Shown: positions 10,505 through 34,707, numbered from the stretch's first letter. The stretch is 64,000 nt of DNA from Patescibacteria group bacterium (GCA_019752125.1 JAIEMM010000002.1:67062-131061), one strand, 5' to 3'. Made by a program: numbers and translations. The notes: generated from the letters alone by a model not told the origin.

Positions 10505-11170
10505 ATGTCGAGAAAGATCTCAATCGTTCCAGGTGAGTTTTACCACCTATATAACCGTGGTACGGAAAGAAGAAATGTATTTATGGATAATACCGACTAT
10601 CGCCGATTCCAAAGTCTACTTTATCTAGCAAATAGCATTTTACCTATCCATTTTGACCATATTAAACCGCGAGGTCGGACCTCGCCCGATATATATCTCC
10701 TTCAACGTAAGAATCTACTGGTTGAGGTGTGTGCATATACCATGATGCCTAATCATTTTCATATCTTGGTAAAGGAAAAAGTCGAGGGTGGAATAAGCCA
10801 TTTTATACAAAAACTTAGTACGGCGTATACGATGTACTTCAATAAAAAGAATGGGCGAAATGGTGTTCTGTTCCAAGGTAAATATAAAATAGTCCATGTG
10901 GACAATGACCAATACTTGAAATACTTGGTCTCCTATATTCACCTCAATCCAATAAAACTTATCGAACCGACATGGAAAGAAACGGGTATTAAAGATAGGG
11001 CTAAAGCTAAGGAATATCTTGCCACTTTCCCCTATTCAAGCTATCCAGATTTTCTGGGCGAACAACGACCGGAAAAGGCAATTATTTCAACACAGAGCCT
11101 CCCGATTTATTTCAACACCACAAAAGATTTTGAAGCTGAAGTTACGGACTGGCTAAGCTACGAAAAATAG
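10505..11170 (+). CDS. IS200/IS605-family HuH Y1 transposase, REP-associated tyrosine transposase (RAYT)-like
   Basis: HuH motif MMPNHFHILV and catalytic tyrosine region KYLVSYIHLNPIK. Flanked by REP-like palindromes. Confidence 0.75.
   Translation: MSRKISIVPGEFYHLYNRGTERRNVFMDNTDYRRFQSLLYLANSILPIHFDHIKPRGRTSPDIYLLQRKNLLVEVCAYTMMPNHFHILVKEKVEGGISHFIQKLSTAYTMYFNKKNGRNGVLFQGKYKIVHVDNDQYLKYLVSYIHLNPIKLIEPTWKETGIKDRAKAKEYLATFPYSSYPDFLGEQRPEKAIISTQSLPIYFNTTKDFEAEVTDWLSYEK
10668..10686. repeat. REP-like palindrome copy 2 (CGCGAGGTCGGACCTCGCC), inverted orientation, inside the RAYT coding sequence
   Basis: Reverse complement of copy 1 apart from 1 nt. It encodes PRGRTSP within the transposase. Confidence 0.45.
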
Positions 11171-17682: not shown

Positions 17683-18000
17683 ATATCCACCGTTCTGTGC
17701 ATTACCGCCCGAGCTAATGGTAACGCCAGCAGCAAGAGTCGGGTCAGCATCAACTTTAAGTACGGGGACAGTACTTGTACCAACCGCAAACAGATACCCA
17801 CCTGCACCAGCATTTGGCGTACCTCCTCCAATAAGTAGCGCATGGGCAATCGTTGAAGTTGCGCTCCCGAGCGTCGTTGTTGCAGTGAAGGAGCCTGCGA
17901 GCGCATTAACACCGAGGTCAGATGAGCCATTAACTGAGAGGGCGCGCCATGGTGAGGTGGTGCCAACTCCAACGTTGCCGCCGCCTAGTATGGTCAGGCG

Positions 18001-21000
18001 TTATGCCGCCCCCGTGCCTCCACGTGTTGTGGTAAATCCGAGTTCGCTGTCTGTGAAGCTGCCGTTCCAGGTTTGTCGCACCTCCATGTATGCACGCATG
18101 TTGGACGCCTCACCACCACCTATCAGCAACTTATCGAGATCGGTCGAGCTGTTTGTGCTGAAGAAATTTCCAACAATACGATTTGTAACATTTCCTGCTG
18201 TGTATCCGCCGATACTGAGGCTGTTGGTCGTTGGCACCATGCCGATTCCTACAGTTCCTGCAAAGTACGCGTTGCCGGTTGTTGTTGCTCCACCAAATAT
18301 CGTGAGGCCAGTTGCCTGTCCGCCAGCGCCGATCGTTGATGATGCAAACGCAGTGAAGCCGCCTGCAAATGACGATGCGGTGGTTGAGGTTGCAGTAAAG
18401 TAGCCTGCGAGCGCATTAACACCGAGGTCAGATGAGCCATTCACTGAGAGGGCGCGCCATGGTGAGGTGGTGCCAACACCAACGTTACCTGCAGTGAAGA
18501 TGCTGCTGCCGGCGCCCTTCGGGGTGAAGTTAAGGTTGATATTGGTATCAGTTCCCTGTGCAGAGATAGTTGGGCCAGAAAGCGTCGCAGAGTTGGCTAT
18601 CTGCAGATAGTTCACCGCGCTTGCTGCCCCTGCCGTAATGACGAGAGCCGACTTCGCACTCGTATCCGAACCGTTGGAAACAAAGAAATTTAGGTTTCCG
18701 GGGGTGTTCGGATTGTTCGCCGAACCTGGGACAGAAGCCGTGATCTGCGCAGGGCTCGCAAGTCCTCCCGTATTTCGCACCTGGAAGTCGATCAGACCGA
18801 TCACATCGTTACCGGAAAGCGAGCTTGGAGAGGCGACGCTTCCTCCTTGTTTACTGAAGCGCAGTACGCCACTGTGAGTTGTCGCACCTCCGAACCTATC
18901 GGCCTCAATTACCGCATTCGTTCCACTCTCAGCCTGCATGACGATCTTATTCTCCTGCGAACCGGTGCCTTGGACGACGAGCGCTGTGTTCGTGTTGCTT
19001 ACTGTAGATGGCGCCGCGCCGATACCGAATCCGTTAGCAGTCGCCTGCGCCCGGAGCGTACCGCCGGCAGTGAAACCGAGCTGGTCCGCGCCGATGTTGT
19101 ACATGCCCGTATTCATGTCGCCCGTGAAGGTGAAGGCAGGCGCACCCGCGGTACCGGTGACGGAAGCCGCAAAATAGGTTGAGGTTGTAGTTGCGGACGA
19201 AGTAAGACCACCAGCAAAACTTGACGCCGTGCTTGATGTTGCAGTGAAGTAGCCAGCAATTGCTTGGTTACCGAGACTTGAGGTTCCTTCAACGGAGAGT
19301 TTGTAGAAAGGAGTTGTGGTACCAAGGCCGACGTTACCGTTATAGTCGATCCTCATCGCCTCAGCCGTGGTAGCGCCCGGGGAAGATGCGCTGCTTGTTT
19401 CAAATGCAAGGTACCCTCGGTATGAACCTGAATTACCTGACGTGATGCGTGCGCCGATGTTGTTGTTTGCTCCAGTTGCCTGTCTAAACGCCATGGACTG
19501 ATAAAAGCCAGTGCCCGCAGAGCTGCCCGAGAGAATAAAGTTATCCTGATTTCCACTGTTTACCGATGTACCAACCACCTCAAGTTTTGTCCCAGGAGTT
19601 GTTGTACCGATACCAACATTGCCGCCGTTAGTTATAGAAACACGATTCGCAATTGAACCTGCAGCACCAGTTGCAAACACAATGTCAGCACCGCCGCGTG
19701 GCTGAAGCACCAAATTACCAACGGTTTGGAACGGATAGGAAGCGCCAATATTGTCAGTGCGGTAAATAGCTGGGTACAACGAATTTTCTGGGTAGGTTGA
19801 TTCAAATCCGCGCAGCGTAAGAGGGCCCGCGACTGAAAGCTGTGTGGTCGAGGCAAAGCCGAGCGTCGTCAAACCCGTAACATTGAGCGTTGAACTGAGT
19901 ATTGTTGCGCCCGTAACAGCGAGCGTCCCTTGCGCGGTGATGTTTCCTGTCGTTGTTGCACCGCCGTTGATAGTAAGACCTGTTGTTTGAGTACCACCAC
20001 CGATCGTTGATGATGCGAGTGAAAGGAAGCCGCTGGTGAAGGTTGAGAGGCCACTGGTGGTAAATGTTCCAGTCGAAGTAATAACTCCTGTGTTGCTGAT
20101 GCTAAATAATGTACTTGTTGCCGTTGCGGTTGAAGAGCCGATTGCAAACAAGGTTGTGTTTGTGTCACCGTTGTTTGCATGGATTGCAAAACGAGCGAAT
20201 GGAGATGTCGAACCAACACCAAGCTGGCCGGCTGAGTATGTTTGGCCACTAAAGCTGCCGTTATTTGTTCCAAACAAAATATTTTGGATAGTAAGTTGCC
20301 CGTTCCCTGTTGATGACGGCAACATAACACCGTTACCGATAGAAACATTGCTGGTACCAGTAGTTATTTCATTGCTTTGCGCAGAGTATCGTGGACCTAT
20401 AACGACGTTGCCGCTACCTGTCGTAATTGCCGAACCAGTGTTATATCCTAATAATGTATTGTAACCCCCTGTCAAATAACTCGATGGACCACCCCCACCA
20501 GCCCCCATACCGACGAATGTAGATCCTGTCGTTGAGGCATACGCGCCAGCGCTCGCGCCAATAAAGGTATTTTGTACAAATGCTGTTGAAGAACCAATAA
20601 GCCCTGCGTTGTAGCCTAGGGCTGTATTACGAGCGAAGGCGCCAGCAAGGTCATTGAAGAGCGCTTGATATCCAACTGCTGTTTCGGCGCTGACAGAAAC
20701 ATTTGCTTGAGCATTCAAGCCGCCAGCGCGTGGGCCAACAAAGACACTCATGTTCGTCGTGCTTGCATACAACACAGTACTTCCGTCTATCTTGTAACCA
20801 CCGGTTGAAGCCGAAGTATTGAAGAAGCCTGATGTGTACACATTGCCCGCGACTGAAAGAGTCGATCCTGGGGTTGTGGTACCAATGCCAACGTTGCCGG
20901 TTGAGACCACAAGATTTCCAGACGTGCCAAGATTTCCAGGGCGCAACATAAGATCCGCGCGTGTATCGAAATAAGAATTTCCAGTTGATTCAGCTGTAAT

Positions 21001-24000
21001 TCTAAATTCATTCACTCCAGCAGTGCTTCCAAAGAAGCCCGCATAATTAGAGCTAGAATTAACGGTCAAGTGACCTGCGTTATCCATGGAAAGCAACGTT
21101 GTGGTTGCCGTTGCAGTTGAAGAGCCAATTGCAAACAAGGTTGTGTTTGTGTCACCGTTGTTTGCGTGGATTGCAAAACGAGCGAATGGAGATGTTGAAC
21201 CAACACCGACGTTGCCCTGGACAATCAAGCCGTTAGTTGGTGCCGTTGTTGCCCAATAACTACTACCGATAGTAGTACCTCCTGAAATCGCGAGCACGCT
21301 AAGTGGGCTACCGAGACCTGAAGCCGCGCCAATACCCACAGCGTTACCGTTTGGGTTAATAAAGAGTTGCGCGCCACCATTACCATAGGCACTCGTACCC
21401 TGAATAGCTCCGTAGCCTCCTATATAAGCACCGAGCGACACCCCTGCCGAGCTACCTATTGTTCCAATGTTGGTGCTTCCAAAGTAGTTGCTGCTTGAAA
21501 TGGTGCCACCGCCAACTACGGCGAGACCAGTCTGCGGCGTTGTAGTACCGATACCGACGTTTGAAGCAAAGTATGCACGGCCTGTTGTTGTTGCAGGGCC
21601 GTTAACTGTAAGGCCGAATGTACCATCACCGATAGTTGACGATGCAAACGCTGTGAAGCCGCCAGCAAAGCTTGAAGCTGTGGTTGATGTTGCAGTGAAG
21701 TAGCCAGCGATTGCCTGGTTACCAAGAGATGAAATTCCTTCAACTGAGAGTTTTGCCCATGGAGATGTTGTGCCAATGCCGACGTTGCCTGCATTTGTCA
21801 CCGCAAACAACGTGCTTGTTGCAGTTGCAGTTGAAGAGCCGATTGCAAACAACGTTGTGTTTGTGTCGCCGTTGTTTGCATGGACTGAAAGTTTTGCAAA
21901 TGGAGATGAAGTGCCAATACCTGTTGTGCCTGCGACGATAAGACCTGTTGATGGAGCCGCAACGAGCGGATACCCAACCGATGCATTAGTTCCAACGTTC
22001 AAGCCAGAAAGTGGAGTAGATCCCGAGCGGATAGAAACACCGTTCGCCCCCGCAGGCATGTACAGAAGACCGCTACCGTCGGTGTTGTGGAAGAAGACAT
22101 GCTGGCCGCTTACCTCAAAACCGTAGTTACCCAGCACTCCTGTTGTACCAATTGTAGTATTTCCATTTTGGAGTGTTCGGAACTGGCTACCAACAGCAAG
22201 CCCGCCGCTTATCGTTGTTGTTGCAGTCGAGACACCTGCATTGATATTGCCGGCATTGTCGACAAGGAAGAGTGTTGTTGAAGCGCTGTTTGAAAGTTCA
22301 AACGCACGGCTAGTAGCAGCGGAACCACCGCCCTGAACACTCAAGGCTGCATACCCCGTTGTAGTGCCAATAGCTACATACGTAGAACCTATTCCAAATG
22401 GGTTTATGGCAAACGGAACTGCGCCGTTGCCAGCTGTCGAGACCGACTCCATATACGGGGTGCTGGCTCCTGCTGAATTGAGCAGGCGTCCAAACCCAAG
22501 TGCGCCCGACGTACCAGTAAAGTCAAACTGAACGGCTGTTTGATTTACTCCTGTTGCAAAAATGCTGCTACTTACAACCAATTTTTTGGTTGGACTAGTT
22601 GAGCCGATGCCAACATTGCCAGCGAAGTACGCATTGCCAGTAGTTGTTGCGCCGCCGTTGATAGTGAGACCACCATTTTGGTTACCGTTACCAATAGTTG
22701 ATGATGCGAGTGAGAGGAAGCCATTTGTGAATGTTGAAAGGCCGGTAACGGTGAAGGTTGATGTTGCAACCAAATTTCCTGCAGTGAGCGTACCTGAAAC
22801 AAGCGCGTCGCCTTGAACTGAAAGTTTTGCGTATGGTGATGTGGTGCCGACACCAACACTACCGTTTGACGCGATAAAAAATGCGGTGCTCGTCCCAAGA
22901 CCGTTTGTTGAAGATGCAACCATAAAGAGCGGCGATGAGCCCACGCCATTTGCCACAACAGAGAACTTAGCCCATGGAGTAGTTGTGCCAATACCGATAT
23001 TGTTTTCGACGCCTAGATTGTTGAAATACAGTTTGTTGTTCCCATACCCAAATGTTTTATACCCATACGTCCCATCCCATCCGTTAGAGATCAATGCATT
23101 GCCACCTGCGTCTTTTACAAGTATGGCACTGCCATTGTTATCCATGAGTTGAATTGCGCTTGCAACCTGCACCAACCCGTTAGACGTCTTGAGAATTCTA
23201 AGCGAGTATGCGTCGGATGGTTTGTAAATATATCCAAATGAGATGTTGCCTGAAGAATCAACCTCTATGTCTCTTGTATTTCCATTCGACGATTCAACCA
23301 CAAACCGTGTTGTCGCATCGCTTACCACCGCAAACCCAGCAGATGGGCTCGATGTGCCAATTCCAACTCTCCCTGCAAAGTACGCATTACCCGTTGTTGT
23401 TGCGCCGCCGTTGATAGTGAGACCACCTGTTTGTGTGCCATTGCCGATGGTTGATGATGCGAGTGAGAGGAAGCCGTTTGTGAAGGTTGCAAGACCAGTT
23501 TGTGTAAGCGTACCCGTGTGTGTGGTGTTGCCTGAGACAGTGAGTCCTTGTGCAGTGAGTGTTCCAAACGCAGCAAGTTGTGCAAACAAGTTTGTTGATG
23601 ACGCTGTTGTTGCGAAGAATGCGCTTGAGGTTGCGTTTGCAAGGACTGTATTTCCGGAGACCGTGAGTGTTGAAGTTGCGGTGATTGCTCCACCGAAGAA
23701 TGCAGTGCCTGATGTGTATTGATTGCCTTGGACGGAAAGATTTGTTGATGGAGAGGTGGTGCCGATGCCAACGTTGCCATTTTGATCTATTCGCAAACGC
23801 TCAGTTTTAACCAGAGATGTGGATGGAGTTGTAAAGAAGGTCATGAACGTACCGTTGGACGCAGTGTTCCAGTTTTCAGATGCGTACATACCAATCGCCG
23901 CACGACTACCTGTTACAAAATTACTTCCGTCATACCCGCGAGCGCCGATGAAACCGATCTGATCATTCGCCAAAAGTGCCGTTGGCGCTACATTTGTTCC

Positions 24001-26598
24001 TCGAGCAGAGCGCAACATAAGAGAAGATCCGCCTGAACCTGAACCGTTGTAGTAACTATCAAAGTACGCAGTAGCATCCGAATTCATACTGGAAACAGTG
24101 AGTGGCACAAGCGGAGTTGATGTGCCGATGCCCACATACCCTGCATTTGTGACGATAAAGTCCGTTTTGGTTGAAGAACCAACTACAAACGATGGACCTG
24201 CAATGCCGTTTGGATTTACTGAAAGCTGACCCCATGGAGTTGTAGTTCCAACACCTACGTTGCCGGCCGTATCAATTGCTAGTTGAGTTGTTTGGCTTGA
24301 GCCAGTCTGGAAGTAGATTGGAAGATACGTGCCAGTGCCGCGACGATTTGCTGCAATCAAAACATTACTTGCAGTAATACCAAAGTTTGCAAAAGAGGCG
24401 TTAGTTGGGTCGGAATTGTTGTACGCATTAACTGCAGACGTAGGAGATGTTCCGTTTGGAAGGAACGAGAAATTTGTATTACCGTTTGTAACATTTGTTT
24501 GGAAGGCGACACGGTTTGCGATAGTGGCGTTGCTGTAGTCTCCCAAAATTCGAGCGCCTAGCGCACTGAGCACAAGGTTACCTGTTGTTGTTGCGCCACC
24601 ACTTACCGTAAGGCCGCCTGCCTGCGTACCATCACCAACTGTTGACGATGCCTGAGAAATGAATCCCTGTGTCAACGTGACACCAAGCGGACCAACCGCA
24701 AACATCGTGTCTCCTGTTGAAGAAGCAATTTGCAAAATGTCGCCTGTCTGGCCCGCAACACCTTGGAGTTTGAGAGTTGGAGTTGAAAGGGAGCCTGATT
24801 GGTTAGCGATGTAAAGTGCTTGGTTGATTTCAAAACGTTTTGGTGCCGTTTTCCAAGAAATGAGTGCGTTAGGAACTACGTTGCCGCGGAAGAAGATAAG
24901 GTCCATGTCTTCTGCGTCAGCCGAGACATTGTCGGAGTTGATGGTGAATGTTGCAGACGCAGTACCTGCGATGGTTGTTGATGCGGCAGAGATGTTGTTT
25001 GCAACGATGTTACCTACGTACACATTTTTCCAATAGAACGATGGAGAACCGAGGTCATACTGGATGTTTTGGTCCGGCGTGAGGTTTGATTTAATCGAAG
25101 AATTAATGATCAAGCTGTTGGATGAGCTGTTGCCGAGAGTCACTGTGTTGCCACCAACAAAAAGATCTCCGCCGAAGTATGCATTGTTCGCAACCTGTAG
25201 CGTGCCAGGCGCTGATGTTGCAATTCCGATACCAAGTCCTCCTACAAAGTAGGCGTTGCCTGTTGTTGTTGCGCCGCCGTTGATAGTGAGACCACCGTTT
25301 TGGTTACCGTTACCAACTGTTGACGATGCGAGTGAGAGGAAGCCGCCAAAGAAACTCGATACCCCTGAGAGGTTGATGGTTTGCGCATTGAGCGTTCCGA
25401 TTGTGCCAGTTTGTGCAAAAAGATTTGTGCTTGATGCTGTTGTCGCGAAGAAGTTTGTTGATGTTGCATTAGCGAGCGTCGTATCTCCAGTTACCGTAAG
25501 CGAACCTCCGTTGAGGAAAAAGTTTCCCGTCGTCGTTGCATTGCCGAGCACTGTAAGGTTCGAGAGCGTTGTTGTTCCTGCAGTGAGCGAATTTTGTATC
25601 GTGACATCACCGGCAAGATTTGATGTACCTGAAACAAAAAGGCGTCTAGTTTCTACGTACTGTGCATTGATGTCGTCAGCAGTAGTGGTGTTGCGAAGAC
25701 GAACATCCGAGAGATTATTTATGACCTGCGAAACAGCGAAGTTTTGGTGTGGACTTTCGTGGCCCGGATTCTGGAGGAAAGAAATCTGTACTGCGAGACG
25801 GTTGTAGAGATCCTCGAGGCGGCCGTTGAGTTCCTCCTGAGTGACACCGCCAACTGCAACACTGCGCTCCACAACACGCTCAACAACAGGATAGTTATTT
25901 ACGATCTGAGTTTTTGAAGTCGTACCAGATGCTGCGGATGCCGAAGTAGAATTCGTCCGCGGTGCCCCAGCACCGATCGGCGAATTCTGCGCAGGTTCGG
26001 TTGTAATTTTTTGTGTAGGCTGGATGACAACGTTTTGTGCAACTTGTGTCTTATCACCAAACAACGTTGCAAAAACATTCGAGAGAAAATTTGTTGCGCC
26101 CGCAAATGCGTTACCTGCGCCCGTTGGCAACACAACTGCTGGCGCCTGTGTGCCGAAGAATGGAGATTGTGCTTCAGAGATTGCAGCGTACTGATTTTGG
26201 TGCGGCACATTCATGCTGCTTGCAAACACAAGTGCGCCAACCAAAAGAACCGCACCAACCGCCATACCTATAGGGGCACCGACAGAAACTTTTTTTACAC
26301 GCAAAAAAATTTGCTCTATTAGAGTGCTGTTTTGAATTTGATATGAGGTCTTTTCGCTTCGGCGTTGCTCTGCAAGCTGGGCTGAGCGCTGCTCTTTAGC
26401 CAAGGTGCGAGCAGATTCAAACTCTTCGATGGAGGAAGGGACCACAAACCACTGGCCGCCAATCTGTTCACCAATGAGCTTTCCTTCACGGCAAAGCTTG
26501 GAGACATAGTCTGGAGCGCACTTCAAACGCGCAGCTACTTTGCGCGCCGAGAGCATCGGTTGACCATCGTTTGAAATTATTTTTTTCGAGGATGTCAT
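18001..26598 (-). CDS. Giant membrane-anchored repetitive surface protein (2865 aa). N-terminal excisionase-like HTH module, then one TM helix, then adhesin/fibre-like repeats
   Basis: N-terminus MLSARKVAARLKCAPDYVSKLCREGKLIGEQIGGQWFV is an HTH_17/excisionase-like motif. TM helix VGAPIGMAVGAVLLVGALVFA sits near residue 110. The remaining ~2700 aa are GNxGIGTTSP modules and Hep_Hag-like repeats. It ends with TAA at 18001-03, in-frame with the next ORF. Confidence 0.85.
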   Translation of the reverse strand: MTSSKKIISNDGQPMLSARKVAARLKCAPDYVSKLCREGKLIGEQIGGQWFVVPSSIEEFESARTLAKEQRSAQLAEQRRSEKTSYQIQNSTLIEQIFLRVKKVSVGAPIGMAVGAVLLVGALVFASSMNVPHQNQYAAISEAQSPFFGTQAPAVVLPTGAGNAFAGATNFLSNVFATLFGDKTQVAQNVVIQPTQKITTEPAQNSPIGAGAPRTNSTSASAASGTTSKTQIVNNYPVVERVVERSVAVGGVTQEELNGRLEDLYNRLAVQISFLQNPGHESPHQNFAVSQVINNLSDVRLRNTTTADDINAQYVETRRLFVSGTSNLAGDVTIQNSLTAGTTTLSNLTVLGNATTTGNFFLNGGSLTVTGDTTLANATSTNFFATTASSTNLFAQTGTIGTLNAQTINLSGVSSFFGGFLSLASSTVGNGNQNGGLTINGGATTTGNAYFVGGLGIGIATSAPGTLQVANNAYFGGDLFVGGNTVTLGNSSSNSLIINSSIKSNLTPDQNIQYDLGSPSFYWKNVYVGNIVANNISAASTTIAGTASATFTINSDNVSADAEDMDLIFFRGNVVPNALISWKTAPKRFEINQALYIANQSGSLSTPTLKLQGVAGQTGDILQIASSTGDTMFAVGPLGVTLTQGFISQASSTVGDGTQAGGLTVSGGATTTGNLVLSALGARILGDYSNATIANRVAFQTNVTNGNTNFSFLPNGTSPTSAVNAYNNSDPTNASFANFGITASNVLIAANRRGTGTYLPIYFQTGSSQTTQLAIDTAGNVGVGTTTPWGQLSVNPNGIAGPSFVVGSSTKTDFIVTNAGYVGIGTSTPLVPLTVSSMNSDATAYFDSYYNGSGSGGSSLMLRSARGTNVAPTALLANDQIGFIGARGYDGSNFVTGSRAAIGMYASENWNTASNGTFMTFFTTPSTSLVKTERLRIDQNGNVGIGTTSPSTNLSVQGNQYTSGTAFFGGAITATSTLTVSGNTVLANATSSAFFATTASSTNLFAQLAAFGTLTAQGLTVSGNTTHTGTLTQTGLATFTNGFLSLASSTIGNGTQTGGLTINGGATTTGNAYFAGRVGIGTSSPSAGFAVVSDATTRFVVESSNGNTRDIEVDSSGNISFGYIYKPSDAYSLRILKTSNGLVQVASAIQLMDNNGSAILVKDAGGNALISNGWDGTYGYKTFGYGNNKLYFNNLGVENNIGIGTTTPWAKFSVVANGVGSSPLFMVASSTNGLGTSTAFFIASNGSVGVGTTSPYAKLSVQGDALVSGTLTAGNLVATSTFTVTGLSTFTNGFLSLASSTIGNGNQNGGLTINGGATTTGNAYFAGNVGIGSTSPTKKLVVSSSIFATGVNQTAVQFDFTGTSGALGFGRLLNSAGASTPYMESVSTAGNGAVPFAINPFGIGSTYVAIGTTTGYAALSVQGGGSAATSRAFELSNSASTTLFLVDNAGNINAGVSTATTTISGGLAVGSQFRTLQNGNTTIGTTGVLGNYGFEVSGQHVFFHNTDGSGLLYMPAGANGVSIRSGSTPLSGLNVGTNASVGYPLVAAPSTGLIVAGTTGIGTSSPFAKLSVHANNGDTNTTLFAIGSSTATATSTLFAVTNAGNVGIGTTSPWAKLSVEGISSLGNQAIAGYFTATSTTASSFAGGFTAFASSTIGDGTFGLTVNGPATTTGRAYFASNVGIGTTTPQTGLAVVGGGTISSSNYFGSTNIGTIGSSAGVSLGAYIGGYGAIQGTSAYGNGGAQLFINPNGNAVGIGAASGLGSPLSVLAISGGTTIGSSYWATTAPTNGLIVQGNVGVGSTSPFARFAIHANNGDTNTTLFAIGSSTATATTTLLSMDNAGHLTVNSSSNYAGFFGSTAGVNEFRITAESTGNSYFDTRADLMLRPGNLGTSGNLVVSTGNVGIGTTTPGSTLSVAGNVYTSGFFNTSASTGGYKIDGSTVLYASTTNMSVFVGPRAGGLNAQANVSVSAETAVGYQALFNDLAGAFARNTALGYNAGLIGSSTAFVQNTFIGASAGAYASTTGSTFVGMGAGGGGPSSYLTGGYNTLLGYNTGSAITTGSGNVVIGPRYSAQSNEITTGTSNVSIGNGVMLPSSTGNGQLTIQNILFGTNNGSFSGQTYSAGQLGVGSTSPFARFAIHANNGDTNTTLFAIGSSTATATSTLFSISNTGVITSTGTFTTSGLSTFTSGFLSLASSTIGGGTQTTGLTINGGATTTGNITAQGTLAVTGATILSSTLNVTGLTTLGFASTTQLSVAGPLTLRGFESTYPENSLYPAIYRTDNIGASYPFQTVGNLVLQPRGGADIVFATGAAGSIANRVSITNGGNVGIGTTTPGTKLEVVGTSVNSGNQDNFILSGSSAGTGFYQSMAFRQATGANNNIGARITSGNSGSYRGYLAFETSSASSPGATTAEAMRIDYNGNVGLGTTTPFYKLSVEGTSSLGNQAIAGYFTATSSTASSFAGGLTSSATTTSTYFAASVTGTAGAPAFTFTGDMNTGMYNIGADQLGFTAGGTLRAQATANGFGIGAAPSTVSNTNTALVVQGTGSQENKIVMQAESGTNAVIEADRFGGATTHSGVLRFSKQGGSVASPSSLSGNDVIGLIDFQVRNTGGLASPAQITASVPGSANNPNTPGNLNFFVSNGSDTSAKSALVITAGAASAVNYLQIANSATLSGPTISAQGTDTNINLNFTPKGAGSSIFTAGNVGVGTTSPWRALSVNGSSDLGVNALAGYFTATSTTASSFAGGFTAFASSTIGAGGQATGLTIFGGATTTGNAYFAGTVGIGMVPTTNSLSIGGYTAGNVTNRIVGNFFSTNSSTDLDKLLIGGGEASNMRAYMEVRQTWNGSFTDSELGFTTTRGGTGAA

Positions 26599-26924
26599 GA
26601 AGTCCGATATTGCTTTTGTTTGTCCAGTGATTTCGGAGAAGGCACTACATATATTTTACGAGAAAAGTTGTTATTTCTTCAGGAAATTTTCATCAAAAAC
26701 TGTGGATAGAAAATAATTAAAAACTTCGTAAAAGCTTTTATAACAAAAGTTATTTTGGAAAACGTATTCAAGTACATCAACAAATTTTTATGCGCTGTTT
26801 TTAGTACAAAGTTTTTGAAAATTATTGCTAATTTTTGTTACTACTTTTTTTATTATGTTTTATAGATTTATCGTATTGCCTTACCGATATCTCGGCTAAA
26901 CGAGTTGATAAATATAAGAAAAAT

Positions 26925-26949
26925 GCCCTGATCGGGCTACCGTCAGGGC
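26925..26949 (-). terminator. Candidate intrinsic terminator downstream of the HTH-TM gene
   Basis: 7-bp stem GCCCTGA/TCAGGGC with an 11-nt loop. On the minus strand it is followed by ATTTTTCTT. Confidence 0.4.
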
Positions 26950-26994
26950 GATTTTCTATGAGATTTTTCTTAGTAAATTCTTACCAAAAAATTT

Positions 26995-27903
26995 CTAGTT
27001 TTTGCTGTTTTGACAATTTTTAAAAATGAAGCAAAATGTTTTTTCTTGAGCGAAAGCCACACTTGCAGGCTTTCCCTTCTCTACTATTACTACTGAATTG
27101 ATGCCCAAAGATCCAAAGAACGCGAACCCAAAAAAGATAGCTGCCACTACGGTGACTGAAGCTACCGCAAATCCTGTCTTCCATATACTTCTTTTAGGGC
27201 GCAAGATTGGCTGTGCTGTGTGTGCTGGTTTGGCTATTTGAGCCACTACATACTCATCTTTTCTTACCTCTGCTGCTGGTTTTGTCCTTTTCTGTATTGC
27301 TGGAAACAAAGGGCTGTTGTCAGGGATGTACGTAAGGGATGTTTTAAATGGAACCTTCTTTTCTGCAATTACTGGTTTTGCAAAACCTTCAGCAACAAAA
27401 GCTGCTTCAGAAACAAGCTTCCCGGAACGCGGAGAATTCTCTGCTAAGAATTCTCCTACGTACGGCACCGTCGTGCCTCCCTGCATTCCGGCTAAACTTA
27501 TTTCTTTAGCAGCTTCGACAGCTGGTGTCACGGTAGACTCTACTTGCGCAACCACGACGGGTGCAGATGCCGAAACAGGAACTTCTTGAGAAAAAGTCTG
27601 GCGCAAGGTTTCCGAAGGAAACCGAGGACCCCCGAGGACTTTCTCGAAAGAAGGTTCCTGTGTAGGTTCAGTCTTTTCCGGTGAGTTTGTATTCTGCGCA
27701 GGTGTCGCCAAGCTCTGACCTCTCTCCTTGCCGAGATACTCGGCAAAAGAAGCTTCATCTACATACCACGCACGACCTACTTTAGTACCAGAAACTCGGC
27801 CAGCTCGGATAAGCTGTCCTACGTAGTCTGGGTGATACTTATTTTCTTTAGCAATACGCTTAGCCGAGATGTATCGCTTTCCCGAGATTTCTAATTCATC
27901 CAT
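26995..27903 (-). CDS. Membrane protein with an N-terminal excisionase-like HTH module (paralogous to the giant protein N-terminus), a low-complexity region and a C-terminal TM segment
   Basis: ISAKRIAKENKYHPDYVGQLIRAGRVSGTKVGRAWYVDEASF matches the HTH module of the giant protein. TM helix FAVASVTVVAAIFFGFAFFGSLG lies near the C-terminus. Confidence 0.6.
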   Translation of the reverse strand: MDELEISGKRYISAKRIAKENKYHPDYVGQLIRAGRVSGTKVGRAWYVDEASFAEYLGKERGQSLATPAQNTNSPEKTEPTQEPSFEKVLGGPRFPSETLRQTFSQEVPVSASAPVVVAQVESTVTPAVEAAKEISLAGMQGGTTVPYVGEFLAENSPRSGKLVSEAAFVAEGFAKPVIAEKKVPFKTSLTYIPDNSPLFPAIQKRTKPAAEVRKDEYVVAQIAKPAHTAQPILRPKRSIWKTGFAVASVTVVAAIFFGFAFFGSLGINSVVIVEKGKPASVAFAQEKTFCFIFKNCQNSKN

Positions 27904-27926
27904 ACACAGCAGTATATCTCGGTAAC

Positions 27927-27947
27927 GAAAACCCCCACTTGGCGGGG
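27927..27947 (-). terminator. Candidate terminator after gatB
   Basis: Stem ACCCCC/GGGGGT with a 7-nt loop. On the minus strand it is followed by TTTTCGTT, immediately before the next gene start. Confidence 0.4.
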
Positions 27948-27971
27948 GTGTGCAAAAGTCCGTTTTATCGT

Positions 27972-29336
27972 CTATTGGAGCGCTTTCTTAAATTCCTCGG
28001 CAAGCGCTGCAGGGTTTGCTGAACCCTTACTTTCCTTCATTCCCTGTCCTACAAGGAACTGGAGAGAAGCGGCCTTCCCTGCCTTGTAGTCCGCAACTAC
28101 TGCCGGCTGAGCTTCGATAATTTTCTGAACAAGAACGGGTAGTGCCGCGTTATCGATCGCAGCAACTATCTTGCCAGTAAGGATCGCTTGCTTTGCCTGA
28201 GGTGACGCCATGGTGCCATCGGCATACTTTCGTACAACTTCAGAGAGGAACACGGCCTCTGGAATGGCCCAGGACGCATCTTTCTTCAGCTGCCCAGCAA
28301 TATCATTAAGAATAAAATTTGCAGCAATTTTTATCATCTCAGGAGAGTCGAGCTCTTTTTCCATCTCGCCAAACAATGCGGCAAGTTTCGCGTCCCCCAC
28401 CAACTGCTCTATGTCTTGGCTCTGCAAGAAACCGAGCGCAGTGAGACGTTCTCGTTTCTCCGAAGGTATCTCGGGTAGAGATGCACGGAGTGTTTCTGCC
28501 GAAAGTTCCGATATCTCGGATAGACGAAGCTTAGGGAGATCTGGGTCTGGGAAGTAGCGGTAGTCGTGGCTCGATTCTTTTTTACGCTGAGAGAATGTGC
28601 TCTGCGTATTCTCGTTCCAACCGCGTGTTTCCTGTACTAAGGTGCCGCCTTTTTCAAGCACCTCTATATGGCGCGCAACTTCGTATGCGATAGCTCGCTC
28701 AACCGAGCGGAATGAGTTAAGATTTTTGACTTCAACTTTTGTGCCAAGCGTGTCGTCGCGACTAACAGAAATATTAGCTTCCACACGCATCTCGCCCTTC
28801 TCCATATTTGCCTCCCCTGCTCCAAGGTAGCGGAGCAACAGCTGAAGTTCCCGTGCAAAATTACCTGCATCTTCTGCGGTATGGATGACAGGTTCTGTAA
28901 CAAGTTCCATCAATGGAACACCTGCGCGGTTGTAGTCGATGAGACTGTGATCTCCCTCGTGTTGCGAGCGAGCTGTATCTTCCTCGAGATGAATACGAGT
29001 TATCTGAACGTTACGAAGTGACCCACCACTTACAAGTGGAAACGCAAACTGGCTTAATTGGTAGCCCTTAGGAATGTCTGGGTAAAAATAACTTTTACGG
29101 TCAAACTCTGTATAGTCTGCGAGCTTCGAGCCAAGCGCGAGGCCCATCCTAAGTACATGTCGCACGGCCTCTTTGTTTATCACAGGAAGCGAGCCTGGGT
29201 GCGCCATACATACAGGGCAAACATTTACGTTTGGGCGCTTTTCATCAGCGTCGTTGAGACACGCGCAAAACATCTTCGTGCGCGTGTTGAGTTCAGCATG
29301 GATTTCAAGCCCTATGGTTGGGCGGTATTCTGCCAT
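27972..29336 (-). CDS. gatB: Aspartyl/glutamyl-tRNA(Asn/Gln) amidotransferase subunit B
   Basis: N-terminal PTIGLEIHAELNT..., Zn-binding-like CPVCMAHPG and a C-terminal GatB/YqeY domain. Length 454 aa. Confidence 0.9.
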   Translation of the reverse strand: MAEYRPTIGLEIHAELNTRTKMFCACLNDADEKRPNVNVCPVCMAHPGSLPVINKEAVRHVLRMGLALGSKLADYTEFDRKSYFYPDIPKGYQLSQFAFPLVSGGSLRNVQITRIHLEEDTARSQHEGDHSLIDYNRAGVPLMELVTEPVIHTAEDAGNFARELQLLLRYLGAGEANMEKGEMRVEANISVSRDDTLGTKVEVKNLNSFRSVERAIAYEVARHIEVLEKGGTLVQETRGWNENTQSTFSQRKKESSHDYRYFPDPDLPKLRLSEISELSAETLRASLPEIPSEKRERLTALGFLQSQDIEQLVGDAKLAALFGEMEKELDSPEMIKIAANFILNDIAGQLKKDASWAIPEAVFLSEVVRKYADGTMASPQAKQAILTGKIVAAIDNAALPVLVQKIIEAQPAVVADYKAGKAASLQFLVGQGMKESKGSANPAALAEEFKKALQ

Positions 29337-29348
29337 AACCCTTATATA

Positions 29349-30317
29349 CTACCGCAAAGCAGCAATAAGTGTATCTCGAAGATTCTTAACTGATTCATCA
29401 TCCAGGACAGAGACAAGGACCGTCCTCTTCCCCTCTTTTGCAAATAAGCCTTGTATTTTTTGTATATATTCAGAATCTCGGGTATCCGACTTCGTCAGTA
29501 CGATAATTTCATCCTTCTGTGACAGAACACCACCCTCAAATGCGCCGAGTTCCCCGCGGATAAGTGCGTAGTCTTCCATCGGAGTATCGGACTCGAGTGA
29601 CACACAGTGCATTAAAAACCGTGTACGCGAGATATGACGGAGGAAACGAGAACCGAGCCCCTTCCCCTCTGACGCACCCTCGATAATTCCTGGAATATCG
29701 GCAAGTACAAATCCGTACAAAGCGCCCAAGTTAGGGTCGAGCGTAGTAAAGGCATAAGAACCAACCTTAGCGGACGCTCCAGTTAATGCGTTGAGAAGTG
29801 ATGACTTCCCCGCGTTCGGCAAGCCTACCAGCCCAGCATCTGCAATAAGGCGCAGCTCGATGCGCAGCTGAGCAGTTTCGCCTCGCGCGCCTGGCGTACA
29901 TTCCATTGGGCTCTGATTCACAGACGACTTGAAGGCGGTATTCCCCGCTCCACCACGACCGCCCTTGAGCACGAGTATCGGCTTATCTTCCTCTATAAGT
30001 TCAAATTCTTCTCCGGTGCTTCCGTTACGGACGATAGAACCTACAGGCAAATCTAGCGTAAAATCTTTTCCTCCCCGACCGCCTCTATTTTGATTTTCTC
30101 CATCCTTTCCATCTTCCGCCTGGAATTTTTTCTCTCCACGATAGCGAGCAAGCAGGTTGATATCTCGTACGCCACGGATATAGAAATCTCCACCATTACC
30201 ACCATTACCACCAGAGGGCCCAGAATATTCTTTGCCTTTTTCGTGCAACCAACGCACGACGCCATCCCCGCCATTGCCAGCGCGCGCGGCTATTGTCATT
30301 TCATCAATAAATGCCAT
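29349..30317 (-). CDS. obg: GTPase Obg/CgtA
   Basis: Glycine-rich Obg fold N-domain (GNGGNGGD, GGRGGAGN) and G1 motif GLPNAGKSSL. Confidence 0.9.
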   Translation of the reverse strand: MAFIDEMTIAARAGNGGDGVVRWLHEKGKEYSGPSGGNGGNGGDFYIRGVRDINLLARYRGEKKFQAEDGKDGENQNRGGRGGKDFTLDLPVGSIVRNGSTGEEFELIEEDKPILVLKGGRGGAGNTAFKSSVNQSPMECTPGARGETAQLRIELRLIADAGLVGLPNAGKSSLLNALTGASAKVGSYAFTTLDPNLGALYGFVLADIPGIIEGASEGKGLGSRFLRHISRTRFLMHCVSLESDTPMEDYALIRGELGAFEGGVLSQKDEIIVLTKSDTRDSEYIQKIQGLFAKEGKRTVLVSVLDDESVKNLRDTLIAALR

Positions 30318-31850: not shown

Positions 31851-34382
31851 CTATTCAACAATCTTCCACCCTTGGCTTAGCAATTGTTCTGCTTTTTTGA
31901 ATTTCATTTCGCGAGTCTCAACCCCATTAGTGATGGTAATTTTATCATTACGGCCGGTTGAGCGGACGATGGCGTCGGTTGCGGAGCCGAAGACCGACGC
32001 AGAGGTGTTGTCACCCGCTTGTAGATTTATAGTAGGAATTTCAGCAGGTGCAGGTTGCATTGCCTGTGCCGTAAGTCCATCAAGGATCTGGAATACGCGG
32101 TCTGCAAGCATATATTCCAACTCTTTATACATACGCGTGCCCTCTTTGCGGTACTCGGTAAGCGGGTCGCGTTGGCCGTAGGCGCGCAAGTTTACGCTGC
32201 CGCGTAGATACTCCATAGACTCCAAGTGCTCCATCCATAGCATGTCTATTGTCTGCAGAATGACGGTACGCGCAGCACCTAAAAACGCCTCACGGCCAAA
32301 CTCTATTTCTTTTTTCAAAACAATCTCTGCAGCTCCATCTAATTTTCCAGAAGGGTTTGAAGGGTCTGTCGCGAGTTCTGTAAGCACATCCTCTACATCA
32401 TCAAGAGTGCCAACCAACACCTTGCGGCGGCGATCGTAGACTGCCTTGCGCTGCCTGTCGAGCACGTTGTCAAACTCAAGCACATGTTTACGTGAATCAA
32501 AGTTAAACCCTTCTATTTTTGTCTGCGCACTTTCAAGCGCGCGCGTCACCATTGAGTTCTCTATAGGCTCATCTTCGGCTATACCAAAGCGGCCCATCAG
32601 TCCTTTAATGGAGTCAGGTGCAAAGACACGCATAAGGCTGTCTTCCAGAGAGACGAAAAATTGTGTCTCGCCCGGGTCACCCTGGCGACCGGAGCGGCCA
32701 CGCAGCTGGTTGTCGATACGGCGAGCTTCATGACGCTCGGTGCCAATAACGAAGAGTCCCCCAAGGGCTTTTACCTCGTCCGCATGCGTAGAATGTCCGC
32801 CAGCGCCACCCAACTTAATGTCGACGCCACGGCCTGCCATGTTTGTTGCAACAGTTACCTTCCCTTTCTCACCAGCTGACGCAACAATCTCGCCTTCACG
32901 TTCATGATTTTTGGCGTTCAATATTTCATGCGGAATACCCTCCTGTTTCAAATATGCAGAAAGTAACTCATTTTTCTCAATCGAGACAGTGCCTACAAGC
33001 ACTGGTTGGCCCTTTTTGTGGAGCTCTTTTACTTTTCGTGCGAGCGCCTTAAATTTGCCGTTCTCCGTCTGGAAAATCTGATCGTTACGGTCTACGCGCA
33101 CAACTGCTTTATTCGTTGGTATTTCAACCACCTCAAGTCCGTACACTTTATAGAATTCTTCTGAGGAGGTCTTTGCAGTACCTGTCATACCTGCAAGTTT
33201 GTCGTAGAGACGGAAGTAGTTCTGGTATGTGATGGATGCATAGGTGCGTGACTCTTTCTGTACGGGCACACCTTCTTTAGCTTCTATAGCTTGGTGCAGA
33301 CCTTCAGACCATCTGCGGCCTGGCTGCATACGGCCCGTAAATTCATCGACAATAATTATTTCACCATCTTTAGCAACATAGTGCTTATCTTTGTGGAAGA
33401 GCGCTTTTGCACGCACCGCTGTTTCCAGATGGTGCACGTATTTGATTCCCTTTTCTGTATATATATTTTCTACACCGAGCAACTTCTCTGCATGCTCAAT
33501 ACCGGCATCGGTAAGCTGGATAGCTTTTTGTTTTTCATCAACGGTATAGTCGGTTTCTGGATTGAGTTTTGTGGAAAGCTCCGCAAAGACTCTATACAGA
33601 TCTTCCGACTCAGCAGCAGGTGCTGAGATAATAAGGGGCGTACGGGCTTCATCAATCAAAATGGAGTCGATTTCGTCAACAATTGCAAAGTAGTGGCCTC
33701 GCTGACGTACCTCATTGGAGCTGTATGCAATATTGTCACGCAGATAATCAAAGCCGTATTCACTATTCGTACCGTAGGTTATGTCAGCCTCGTACGCTTC
33801 GCGACGGGAACATGGGCGCAGGAATTCATAAAATACGCGAAAGCTCCCCTCTTCATCGCGTATCGCATCATTTTCTGAATGCGCTCCGTCGTATATATAC
33901 GATTCATTATTATTGATGACACCAACAGAAAGTCCGAGTGCGGCATATACTTGCCCCATCCATACAGCATCGCGCCGTGCGAGATAGTCGTTCACCGTAA
34001 CAACGTGCACACCTAAACCAGGTAGTGCATTTAAATATGCAGGCAATGTTGCAACCAAGGTCTTACCTTCTCCTGTTCGCATCTCTGCAATACCACGTTT
34101 GTGCATAATGATGCCACCCACAAGCTGGACATCAAATGGACGCAAGTGGAGCGTGCGGCGCGCGCTCTCACGAACAGCAGCGAAGGCTTCAGGGAGAAGT
34201 GAGTCAAGCGTTTCTCCCTCTTTCAAGCGCTGACGGAACTCAAGCGTTTTTTCTTTTAGTGCCTCATTAGAAAGAGCCTGGAATTCAGGTTCAAAAGCAG
34301 CCACAGCTGCAATGGTCTTAGCATTATCCTTGAGAACACGAGACCCTCCACCAAAGAGATTTTTGAGCGAAATCATGGGCAA
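31851..34382 (-). CDS. secA: Preprotein translocase ATPase SecA. The called start is TTG at 34380-82, and the ATG six nt downstream (MISLKNLF...) is an alternative
   Basis: DEAD-motor Walker A MRTGEGKT, preprotein-binding and helical scaffold domains. Length 843 aa. Confidence 0.95.
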   Translation of the reverse strand: MPMISLKNLFGGGSRVLKDNAKTIAAVAAFEPEFQALSNEALKEKTLEFRQRLKEGETLDSLLPEAFAAVRESARRTLHLRPFDVQLVGGIIMHKRGIAEMRTGEGKTLVATLPAYLNALPGLGVHVVTVNDYLARRDAVWMGQVYAALGLSVGVINNNESYIYDGAHSENDAIRDEEGSFRVFYEFLRPCSRREAYEADITYGTNSEYGFDYLRDNIAYSSNEVRQRGHYFAIVDEIDSILIDEARTPLIISAPAAESEDLYRVFAELSTKLNPETDYTVDEKQKAIQLTDAGIEHAEKLLGVENIYTEKGIKYVHHLETAVRAKALFHKDKHYVAKDGEIIIVDEFTGRMQPGRRWSEGLHQAIEAKEGVPVQKESRTYASITYQNYFRLYDKLAGMTGTAKTSSEEFYKVYGLEVVEIPTNKAVVRVDRNDQIFQTENGKFKALARKVKELHKKGQPVLVGTVSIEKNELLSAYLKQEGIPHEILNAKNHEREGEIVASAGEKGKVTVATNMAGRGVDIKLGGAGGHSTHADEVKALGGLFVIGTERHEARRIDNQLRGRSGRQGDPGETQFFVSLEDSLMRVFAPDSIKGLMGRFGIAEDEPIENSMVTRALESAQTKIEGFNFDSRKHVLEFDNVLDRQRKAVYDRRRKVLVGTLDDVEDVLTELATDPSNPSGKLDGAAEIVLKKEIEFGREAFLGAARTVILQTIDMLWMEHLESMEYLRGSVNLRAYGQRDPLTEYRKEGTRMYKELEYMLADRVFQILDGLTAQAMQPAPAEIPTINLQAGDNTSASVFGSATDAIVRSTGRNDKITITNGVETREMKFKKAEQLLSQGWKIVE

Positions 34383-34433: not shown

Positions 34434-34707
34434 CTTTCGAGAGGATATCCTTTAATCGAATATTAAAGGAGAGAGCGACTATGCGCGCTTCTTCTTCTTT
34501 GCTGCTTTCTTTTTCTTTGCCATTGTAGTAGCGATCTGATCGCAAAATTTTTATGACATCGACCGACCTTGTGTAAAGTTTGTCCGCGGACAATTCAATA
34601 CACAATCTCGATGCTCTACCAATCAGTATCGAGTAAATAAGTTATAGATACAATGAAATTAATCTTCGCAGTGTGGATAACTTTATTTTTTAAATAAAAA
34701 ATAATTT

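Follow-up and report, generated by a model that had tools for sequence, protein, structure and literature searches.

Why should a giant surface protein begin with a domain of the kind that excisionases use on DNA? The question is raised by two adjacent genes in a 64,000-nucleotide (nt) stretch from a Patescibacteria group bacterium (GCA_019752125.1, JAIEMM010000002.1:67062-131061), which we call the window and whose first letter is position 1. The Patescibacteria, or candidate phyla radiation (CPR), are mostly uncultured, and those that have been studied typically live fixed to a host cell. Their giant surface proteins are leading candidates for the structures by which they attach. To our knowledge, almost nothing is known about the anchoring, export or regulation of these proteins. 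In the window, a helix-turn-helix (HTH) domain is joined through a single transmembrane (TM) helix to an ectodomain of thousands of residues, and the neighbouring gene encodes a small membrane protein with a related HTH. Here we describe this HTH-TM cassette, its spread and the DNA elements around its genes, and we weigh what its cytoplasmic domain may do.

Fold and topology of the N-terminal module

The two genes lie on the same strand, and the frame of the giant one is interrupted once:

26995-27903, minus strand: gene of the small HTH-TM protein, 302 aa (call of an open reading frame, ORF)
18001-26598, minus strand: first ORF of the giant gene, 2,865 aa, with HTH, helix, TM helix and Gly/Thr/Ser-rich repeats (GNVGIGTTSP..KLSV)
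18001-18003, minus strand: in-frame TAA interrupting the giant frame, after which the same frame resumes with ...GGNVGVGTTSPWRALSV...
11194-18000, minus strand: continuation of the giant frame, 2,268 codons, with a C-terminal Bact_surface_Ig-like domain (PF16403, E=3.4e-14)

Both ORFs exist as an original prediction, made from the DNA, had described them, the giant one with HTH, charged helix, one TM helix and huge ectodomain. The related N-terminal stretch that they share is about 55 aa long, and among all six-frame ORFs of the window only these two carry it. The giant and small N-termini align by BLASTP with E=2e-10 (28% identity over 112 aa). The neighbouring gene does start with the same module, as had been proposed, and continues with a disordered linker and one TM helix; its product is 100% identical to the NCBI entry 'helix-turn-helix domain-containing protein [Patescibacteria group bacterium]'.

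Family searches agree with the proposed HTH_17/excisionase type. The giant N-terminus matches Pfam HTH_17 (PF12728) with 24.2 bits (E=4.2e-5) and the small protein with 18.1 bits (E=3.4e-3), both under the curated gathering score of 27 bits. That score is passed by the relatives P0211 (61.3 bits) and P0191 (37.1 bits), which are tied to the window through the family profile with E=2e-29 and E=5e-34, respectively. In PHROG, the giant N-terminus matches DNA-binding and excisionase families (E=7.6e-5 and 2.5e-3) and the small protein matches an excisionase family (E=8.7e-7); the NCBIfam 'excise' model gave a faint match only (E=0.07-0.12). The Pfam scan of the window proteins returned no match to MerR or MerR_1, nor to Trans_reg_C, the winged helix of the OmpR/PhoB type.

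We modelled the first 160 aa of the giant protein (32-sequence alignment) and the small protein (65 sequences) with AlphaFold2. Confidence is given as the predicted local distance difference test (pLDDT), which is 96-98 over aa 11-100 of the giant model. The predicted elements and the motifs around them are as follows:

26413-26565, minus strand: giant winged HTH, aa 12-62, with a strand at ~16-17, helices 18-25 and 29-37 and wing 43-52 (pLDDT 96-98)
26284-26439, minus strand: giant long basic alpha-helix, aa 54-105, linking HTH to membrane, with a conserved stripe of R64, R71, L75, R79 and E82
26212-26280, minus strand: giant hydrophobic helix, aa 107-129, ending V-F-A↓S-S; a signal anchor or a cleavable h-region
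26152-26166, minus strand: juxtamembrane extracellular motif SPFFG of the giant protein, aa 145-149
27718-27903, minus strand: small-protein winged HTH, aa 1-62, with an N-terminal hairpin, helices 14-21 and 25-33, wing 39-49 and helix 50-62 (pLDDT 90-96)
27289-27348, minus strand: small-protein linker motif K..LTYI.D..PLFP.I..R, aa ~186-205 (65 sequences)
27106-27186, minus strand: small-protein TM helix, aa 240-266 (pLDDT 92-96)

A confident winged helix is thus modelled at both N-termini, the wing of the giant being a hairpin of residues 43-46 and 49-52 and the small protein having the same fold plus its extra N-terminal hairpin. When the giant model was compared with the PDB by Foldseek, it matched Pukovnik Xis (4j2n), Streptomyces BldC (6ama/6amk) and Bacillus subtilis RacA (5i44), and further Enterococcus TraN (4p0z), Rv2175c and the RdfS excisionase, the entry 8dgl being among the matches, with probabilities of 0.97-1.00; every best structural match is a DNA-binding protein. 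The target-normalised TM-score (TMt) was 0.62-0.79 for Xis, BldC and RacA, at a root-mean-square deviation (rmsd) of 1.1-2.8 Å. All single-domain targets together gave a TMt of 0.57-0.79 and an rmsd of 1.1-3.6 Å over about 50 aligned residues, and the larger chains of TraN and Rv2175c 0.26-0.38 (0.36 for TraN, which has two domains). The Foldseek E-values are weak (0.01-0.2) because the domain is so small, and a profile search of the PDB sequences found no relevant or significant similarity to any chain. At the level of structure prediction, these comparisons show a winged helix of the Xis/BldC/RacA type (HTH_17 superfamily) in both proteins.

The original prediction had placed this domain in the cytoplasm, and charge statistics on more than 200 homologues agree. 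Lys and Arg residues are more frequent before than after the hydrophobic helix, both in giant-type proteins (3.7 vs 0.95, n=109, with an excess before the helix in 99 of them) and in small-type proteins (4.45 vs 1.16, n=106, excess in 103). Because of this bias, and because the helix begins far from the N-terminus (>100 aa in the giant, ~240 aa in the small protein), the positive-inside rule shows the HTH to be on the cytoplasmic side, with no sign of an N-terminus outside the cell.

The two types differ in what joins HTH and membrane. In the giant protein the long helix that follows the wing runs into the TM helix (placed at aa 110-129 by AlphaFold2) and, unlike in MerR regulators, leads to no effector domain. 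In the small protein a linker of about 175 aa (aa 63-239), modelled as disordered, takes this place. In its conserved motif, a candidate partner-binding peptide, Y192 and P201 are invariant, and at least 90% of 65 small-type sequences keep L190, D195 and P198. The last 36 aa of the protein, beyond the TM helix, are extracellular and include a hairpin and a C-x5-C motif. Giant-type proteins conserve an AA.AQ..SPFFG motif 20-30 aa beyond the end of the hydrophobic helix: P146, F147 and F148 are invariant in the alignment (A3), and [ST]P[FLIVM]F is found in 60 of 112 homologues. In giant-type proteins a conserved V/A-F-A↓G/S closes the uncharged stretch, which starts >100 aa from the N-terminus and has a median length of 22 residues. 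Since this end resembles a signal-peptidase site, the ectodomain might be cleaved off there.

Spread of the cassette and pairing of its genes

As to whether such a module is found generally on giant CPR surface proteins, two surveys gave a lineage-wide answer. A DNA-level scan of one genome per species yielded 40 loci, all in Adlerbacteria, Paceibacterota, Nomurabacteria or Parcubacteria metagenome-assembled genomes, some of which their depositors had labelled Saccharibacteria. Complete giant HTH-headed ORFs were present in seven of the 40 loci (2,132, 3,277, 3,594, 2,647, 2,730, 2,502 and 2,608 aa). Eight more loci have ORFs of >2,000 aa that are open at the edge of the DNA examined (five of them ≥3,600 aa), 19 have HTH-headed ORFs that end at contig edges, and the remaining six have shorter complete ones of 212-1,687 aa. 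The giant-type N-terminus is conserved from the first Met, and R19, C27, D30, Y31, K34, L35, C36, R37, E38, G39, L41 and W50 are invariant in all 31 sequences compared.

The second survey, an exhaustive HMMER profile search of 1.84 billion cluster representatives, returned 5,837 clusters at E<=1e-3, of which 1,611 remained at E<=1e-10 and 76 at E<=1e-30. In a set of 152 proteins, made up of the best 150 of these hits and the two seed sequences, 37 were at least 1,000 aa long and 13 at least 3,000 aa, with a maximum of 5,777 aa. Nearly all start with one HTH copy or two, and a single hydrophobic helix follows a median of 46 aa later. Two tandem copies precede the TM helix in 64 of the 152, and two are also found in the window's closest relative (L009) and in L011, L040, L044 and L046. 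The ectodomains behind the cassette range from about 50 to more than 5,500 aa. These data confirm that the fusion to a giant ectodomain is a real, general and lineage-wide cassette. An initial impression of a rare, small family, given by word-indexed searches that returned five and eight short proteins, was overturned by the two surveys; those few matches were due to limited sensitivity and fragmented sequences. HTH-only hits of 75-120 aa had frameshift-like tails or lay at contig ends, and we did not count them as free-standing proteins.

The architecture had been called unusual. This holds for the literature: a full-text search found no description, in CPR or elsewhere, of an HTH_17-type domain joined via a TM helix to surface proteins, and the term 'helix-turn-helix' is absent from a published survey of giant genes. 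It does not hold in the sense of an oddity of this one gene, since the cassette is lineage-wide, and as a kind it belongs to the membrane-tethered HTH proteins, which are already known. The term 'giant adhesin' likewise stands in one half only: the huge fused ectodomain is real, and the adhesin label is an inference, as Pfam found no adhesin domains. On the 5,134-codon frame it detected only HTH_17 and the C-terminal Bact_surface_Ig-like domain, on the ectodomains of relatives it detected no domain, and a PDB sequence search with the C-terminal 668 aa of the giant gave no match. The JGI label of one homologue (P0190), trimeric autotransporter adhesin, does not fit the 5,134-codon frame, in which Pfam found no YadA-type head, stalk or membrane anchor.

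The giant frame as a whole (11194-26598) comprises 5,134 codons with a single internal TAA. After this TAA (18001-18003) it reads on as ...RLTILGGGNVGVGTTSPWRALSV... and reaches a 2,162-aa ORF at 11194-17682. The orthologues in L009 (2,132 aa) and L011 (3,277 aa) are single ORFs from the HTH through the same C-terminal Ig-like domain, and their C-termini are 59% and 42% identical to that of the continuation ORF. A nonsense mutation, a polymorphism and a sequencing error are all possible origins of the TAA. The protein database searched holds no entry for the giant protein, the best match being 57% identical, presumably because of the internal stop. The giant gene is followed immediately by an oppositely oriented gene for an IS200-like Y1 transposase (10505-11170, plus strand; PF01797, E=5.6e-10).

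Some members are 'mini' versions of 271-320 aa that keep the HTH, the TM helix, SPFFG, a VERVVE-like motif and a C-terminal C..C.TK.QL..LL; one of them (P0128) retains a single GVGT.SP repeat. Since the mini versions keep both ends, fibre length varies by repeat number. In genomes with a mini HTH-TM gene the locus is a surface-protein island: between the mini gene and the next HTH and giant gene (7456-10611 in L005), it encodes secreted proteins of 436, 303 and 315 aa. These have their own signal peptides, and a reading of their genes as fragments of a giant gene was rejected.

A small-type gene precedes the giant-type gene in 38 of the 40 loci, on the same strand and at a distance of 300-850 nt. 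Of the remaining two loci, one holds a second paralogous copy and the other a copy at the edge of its contig. On the minus strand of the window, gatB and obg are followed by the small ORF, a 396-nt spacer and the giant ORF:

27972-29336, minus strand: gatB, ahead of the small gene
29349-30317, minus strand: obg

The order dsbD - obg - gatB - small - giant is kept wherever the DNA reaches far enough, showing that the pair beside gatB is conserved across Adlerbacteria and Paceibacteria-type genomes. The pair had been taken for a duplicated anchor cassette, but a local duplication is not what the comparison indicates. Small-type HTHs are only 19-32% identical to the HTH of the window's giant, as against 36-60% for giant-type HTHs, so the duplication is ancient and the two are old paralogues kept side by side. 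The small family has at least 279 members, ~185-342 aa long among those listed, with invariant positions of its own.

In a few loci the cassette is split. At 10884-11240 of L005, a third HTH gene encodes 89 aa of HTH and helix without a TM helix and ends in TAA; 3 nt past this stop, in the same frame, a gene of >2,100 aa opens with an ordinary signal peptide (MLPLKKKIFWILLAALTCAPLLTFAAAPP). At 10533-11023 of L002, a 90-aa HTH gene overlaps by 4 nt a giant gene that starts with a signal peptide of its own (MKLLMHLTRVIFLLGIILLPYAASAPAHA). In L043 (14162-14551), a third HTH ORF is followed in frame by sequence that is not protein-like, so a downstream giant is unconfirmed there. From reading the DNA, only these three were accepted as split variants. 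In split variants with a giant gene, the signal peptide MLPLKKKIFWILLAALTCAPLLTFAAA↓PP holds the position of the fused hydrophobic helix, which therefore occupies the place of a signal peptide. The HTH keeps its functional tie to giant secreted proteins also where it is unattached to them, and the free HTH genes imply a role that needs no covalent anchoring.

Promoter elements of the giant gene and secA

The spacer between the small and the giant gene, and the region ahead of secA, contain the following elements:

26599-26994, minus strand: small-giant spacer, 29% GC, with the giant promoter region and, by eye, a terminator-like hairpin of the small gene
26884-26898, minus strand: pseudo-palindromic box TAGCCGAGATATCGG, ~300 nt upstream of the giant start codon
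26700-26709, minus strand: CTATCCACAG box, DnaA-box-like, ~110 nt upstream of the giant ATG
26653-26658, minus strand: TAAAAT, -10-like box, 50 nt downstream of the CTATCCACAG box
26603-26637, minus strand: inverted repeat TCCGA...AAACAAAAG...TCGGA in the 5' untranslated region (5' UTR), just before the giant ATG
27911-27916, minus strand: TATACT, -10-like box, 7 nt before the ATG of the small gene
31851-34375: secA
34672-34680, minus strand: second box, TTATCCACA, 303 nt upstream of secA
34479-34523, minus strand: tiny lysine-rich ORF MAKKKKAAKKKKRA, between the TTATCCACA box and secA

All 38 spacers compared are 311-843 nt long with 28-44% GC, and three elements are conserved in them. The first, [ACT]TATCCACAG, is present in 36 of the 38 (35 of 37 loci and the window) at constant orientation and position, 50 nt ahead of a TA[CA]AAT -10-like box and ~110 nt ahead of the ATG. 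Its core is largely confined to a few promoters: of 69 copies of TATCCACA in 578 kb of loci, 33 lie in small-giant spacers, five further HTH-giant copies (split variants included) have it upstream, it recurs ahead of secA, at a distance of ~295-373 nt, in 21 of the 22 informative loci, and a handful lie elsewhere. In the secA promoter the box is followed by TTGTAT (-35-like) and then by GATACT (-10-like) 50 nt from the start of the box, the same distance as in the giant-gene promoter. We rejected TATCCACA as a general promoter element: only three copies occur in the 64-kb window, with no overall enrichment, and the box is therefore specific to particular promoters. Nor is the AT-rich spacer an oriC, each spacer having only one or two DnaA-like boxes. 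The shared TATCCACAG box suggests, from its position in the two promoters, a small regulon that joins the export motor to its largest cargo.

The second element, the pseudo-palindrome TAGCCGAGATATCG, is found at about -300 with at most two mismatches in 28 of the 38 spacers (27 of 37 loci and the window), in either orientation and sometimes as two copies 21 nt apart. A CGAGAT core resembling it also lies after the -10 box of the secA promoter. The third, CCGAA...AAACAAAAG...TCGG, adjoins the start codon, where it may control translation or form a ribosome-binding region of unusual kind; a search of 26400-28100 against Rfam returned chance-level matches only and none for this repeat.

Ahead of the small gene, (G)TATACT or TATAAT occurs at the same site in nearly all loci, and as this -10-like box lies only 7 nt from the ATG, the gene is probably transcribed as a leaderless mRNA. 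A CCGAGATAT box considered as another promoter element of this gene was dropped, being present in two loci only. Ahead of secA, the MAKKKKAAKKKKRA ORF is followed by a terminator-like hairpin directly before the gene, and similar ORFs of 13-18 aa precede secA in 16 of 22 loci; the ORF may be a leader peptide or attenuator for secA.

What the cytoplasmic domain may bind

We favour, tentatively, a membrane-tethered DNA-binding role for the cassette, which we consider plausible if somewhat short of probable. The HTH would remain a DNA-binding domain, stay at the inner face of the membrane and tie the surface fibre to DNA, making the cassette a membrane-integrated one-component regulator or tether with the logic of ToxR/CadC and a fold like that of RacA/BldC. 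Its likeliest targets would be the operator-like TATCCACAG box and the CCGAGATATCG pseudo-palindrome before the giant gene, the former being present in the secA promoter as well. Fibre synthesis and SecA capacity could in this way be matched to the amount of fibre in or crossing the membrane.

DNA binding is the most economical reading because the structural neighbours bind DNA, the HTH is often in tandem, and charge and contact residues are basic. The BldC-DNA structure supplies contact positions for comparison (PMC5859096). The base-contacting R30 of BldC corresponds to the invariant K34 in the giant type and to Q30 in the small type, where it has the phosphate contacts K33 and T27 the cassette has an invariant Arg and an invariant Tyr, and its K36 corresponds to a conserved Lys. 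The 55-aa HTH has a net charge of +2.6 in the giant type and +5.7 in the small type, and the helix after it in giant-type proteins one of +3.4. From these features and the models, we infer that the HTH binds DNA.

Several points weigh against this reading. The base-contacting K26 of BldC is an invariant Asp in the cassette, and the minor-groove wing arginines R47 and R48 are replaced by W-F (giant type) or W-Y. The window's own HTHs fall under the Pfam HTH_17 threshold. Both boxes are candidate targets by guilt of association, and TATCCACAG equals the DnaA-box consensus, which makes DnaA the obvious alternative binder. HTHs that have switched to protein binding exist, RodZ being an example. 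Finally, the recognition helix hardly varies among hundreds of genomes, and a conserved protein partner explains this as well as a conserved operator would.

This last point leads to the most credible of the rival explanations, which we nevertheless regard as unlikely: a RodZ-like adaptor, in which an HTH that does not bind DNA docks the small protein and the fibre on a conserved cytoplasmic partner. The partner could be, for example, a cytoskeletal, division or export protein, and the fibre would thereby be positioned on the cell. The layout of HTH, TM helix and extracytoplasmic part does resemble RodZ, whose HTH binds MreB. Both paralogue families keep surface residues (DY.xxL.R.GK and W) invariant or nearly so, and a conserved linear motif in a disordered linker, as in the small protein, is typical of partner recruitment. 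However, the fold is Xis/MerR-like rather than Xre-type as in RodZ, no RodZ family was matched, and HTH_31 reached only E=0.052. The close structural neighbours all bind DNA, the DNA-contact positions stay basic with a positive net charge, and tandem HTH duplication is more typical of DNA binders.

Less likely again is an HTH-bearing extended export signal, in which the hydrophobic helix would be a Sec h-region cut after V/A-F-A↓G/S. The released fibre would be held by other means, and the HTH-helix-TM stub of ~125 aa would remain, or be freed by intramembrane proteolysis, and report each export event to DNA. The small-x-small end is conserved (VFA↓S, VFA↓G, LA↓G), with Gly at about -6; split variants have an ordinary signal peptide directly after the stop of the HTH gene; the giant has no second TM helix or Pfam anchor domain; and the box of its promoter is also that of secA. 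Yet the uncharged stretch, at a median of 22 residues, is longer than one would expect of a cleaved signal, the 27-residue TM helix of the small paralogue looks like a stable anchor, and no precedent is known to us for an n-region with a folded 55-aa domain and a 50-aa helix.

Membrane tethering and cleavage could also be combined with DNA binding, in a form that we hold more doubtful than either rival above. Each fibre would then carry its own cytoplasmic transcription-factor domain, binding the shared TATCCACAG and CCGAGATATCG boxes, as a secretion- or contact-coupled device. The domain would act while tethered, or as a stub left by cleavage at V-F-A↓S and freed by intramembrane proteolysis. 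A bacterium with a tiny genome might so match SecA capacity and fibre synthesis to export or host attachment; the arrangement would resemble Notch signalling in logic and need no separate sensor system.

Three functions had originally been proposed for the module: sorting or anchoring, anti-sigma-like signalling and a link to DNA. The last fits best. A purely mechanical anchor, in which a fast-folding domain forces N-in insertion and a stable stalk without any ligand, is improbable, even though the fibre needs some anchor and the module heads ectodomains of many sizes. Any small domain would do for this, yet exposed residues of the recognition helix are invariant, the HTH is in tandem in many of the top hits, and in the small paralogue there is hardly any ectodomain to hold. 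The split variants, whose HTH is kept as a soluble protein of its own (89-90 aa), argue against such an anchor and weaken pure anchoring or sorting altogether. An anti-sigma-like transducer, whose cytoplasmic domain would sequester a sigma factor until the ectodomain is engaged, is very improbable. Its single-pass N-in layout is common among anti-sigma factors, but zf-HC2, RskA and RsgI signals are absent in Pfam and NCBIfam, the fold is a winged HTH of the Xis type, and among the genes called in the Pfam-annotated loci none for a sigma factor stood out. A mis-called start or chimeric assembly joining an excisionase gene to a surface-protein gene, which the missing database entry and the internal stop might have suggested, is refuted by the same in-frame fusion in independent genomes (40 loci), by many fused database proteins of up to 5,777 aa, and by an N-terminus conserved from its first Met.

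A single lineage thus heads thousands of surface proteins, fibres of >5,000 residues included, with a cytoplasmic DNA-binding fold of the Xis/MerR-like kind. Should the domain bind DNA, the adhesin would itself serve as the receptor, and the cassette would represent a new class of regulator or tether integrated in the membrane; should its ligand be a protein, the cassette would be a new docking system for surface proteins. Either way, it offers a signature by which surface proteins can be searched for in these genomes, a two-promoter candidate regulon of the giant gene and secA, and small soluble domains (aa 1-105) that can be expressed without culturing the organism.

Among known systems, ToxR-like receptors (ToxR, TcpP, CadC, PsaE) work on DNA from within the membrane (PMC10629549, PMC5430869). 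Like the cassette, they have a cytoplasmic N-terminal winged helix, a linker, one TM helix and an extracytoplasmic domain, and their genes often lie beside that of a small membrane partner (ToxS, TcpH, PsaF), as in the small-giant pair. Their HTH, however, is of the OmpR/PhoB type rather than Xis/MerR-like (HTH_17), and their outer domain is a small sensor rather than a fibre of thousands of residues; in the small-giant pair, unlike in ToxR-like pairs, both partners carry an HTH, a putative DNA-binding one. In logic, therefore, the cassette is closest to the ToxR/CadC class but fails that class's defining OmpR-type domain. RodZ shares the order of cytoplasmic HTH, one TM helix and extracytoplasmic part, and uses a membrane HTH outside transcription; it has an Xre-type HTH (HTH_25) and a periplasmic DUF4115, neither of which Pfam matched in the window proteins. 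TraN of the Enterococcus pIP501 type IV secretion system has two tandem excisionase-like winged HTHs, like many family members, but is soluble and plasmid-borne, without TM helix or ectodomain. The ESPR of autotransporters and YSIRK also extend very large surface proteins at the N-terminus, before the hydrophobic export signal, but by ~20-25 unstructured residues, where the cassette has a folded 55-aa domain with a 50-aa helix. MerR regulators combine a winged HTH with a dimerising coiled coil and a C-terminal effector region, whereas the cassette matches no MerR model and has no effector domain. The tandem HTH copies call to mind the head-to-tail multimers of BldC and Xis, but these are small soluble proteins. 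RacA, the chromosome anchor of B. subtilis, has a winged HTH and a long helix, like the giant type, and tethers DNA to the envelope; it reaches the membrane via DivIVA and without a TM helix, whereas the cassette has one of its own. By analogy of fold and tethering, RacA is the nearest overall counterpart of the cassette.

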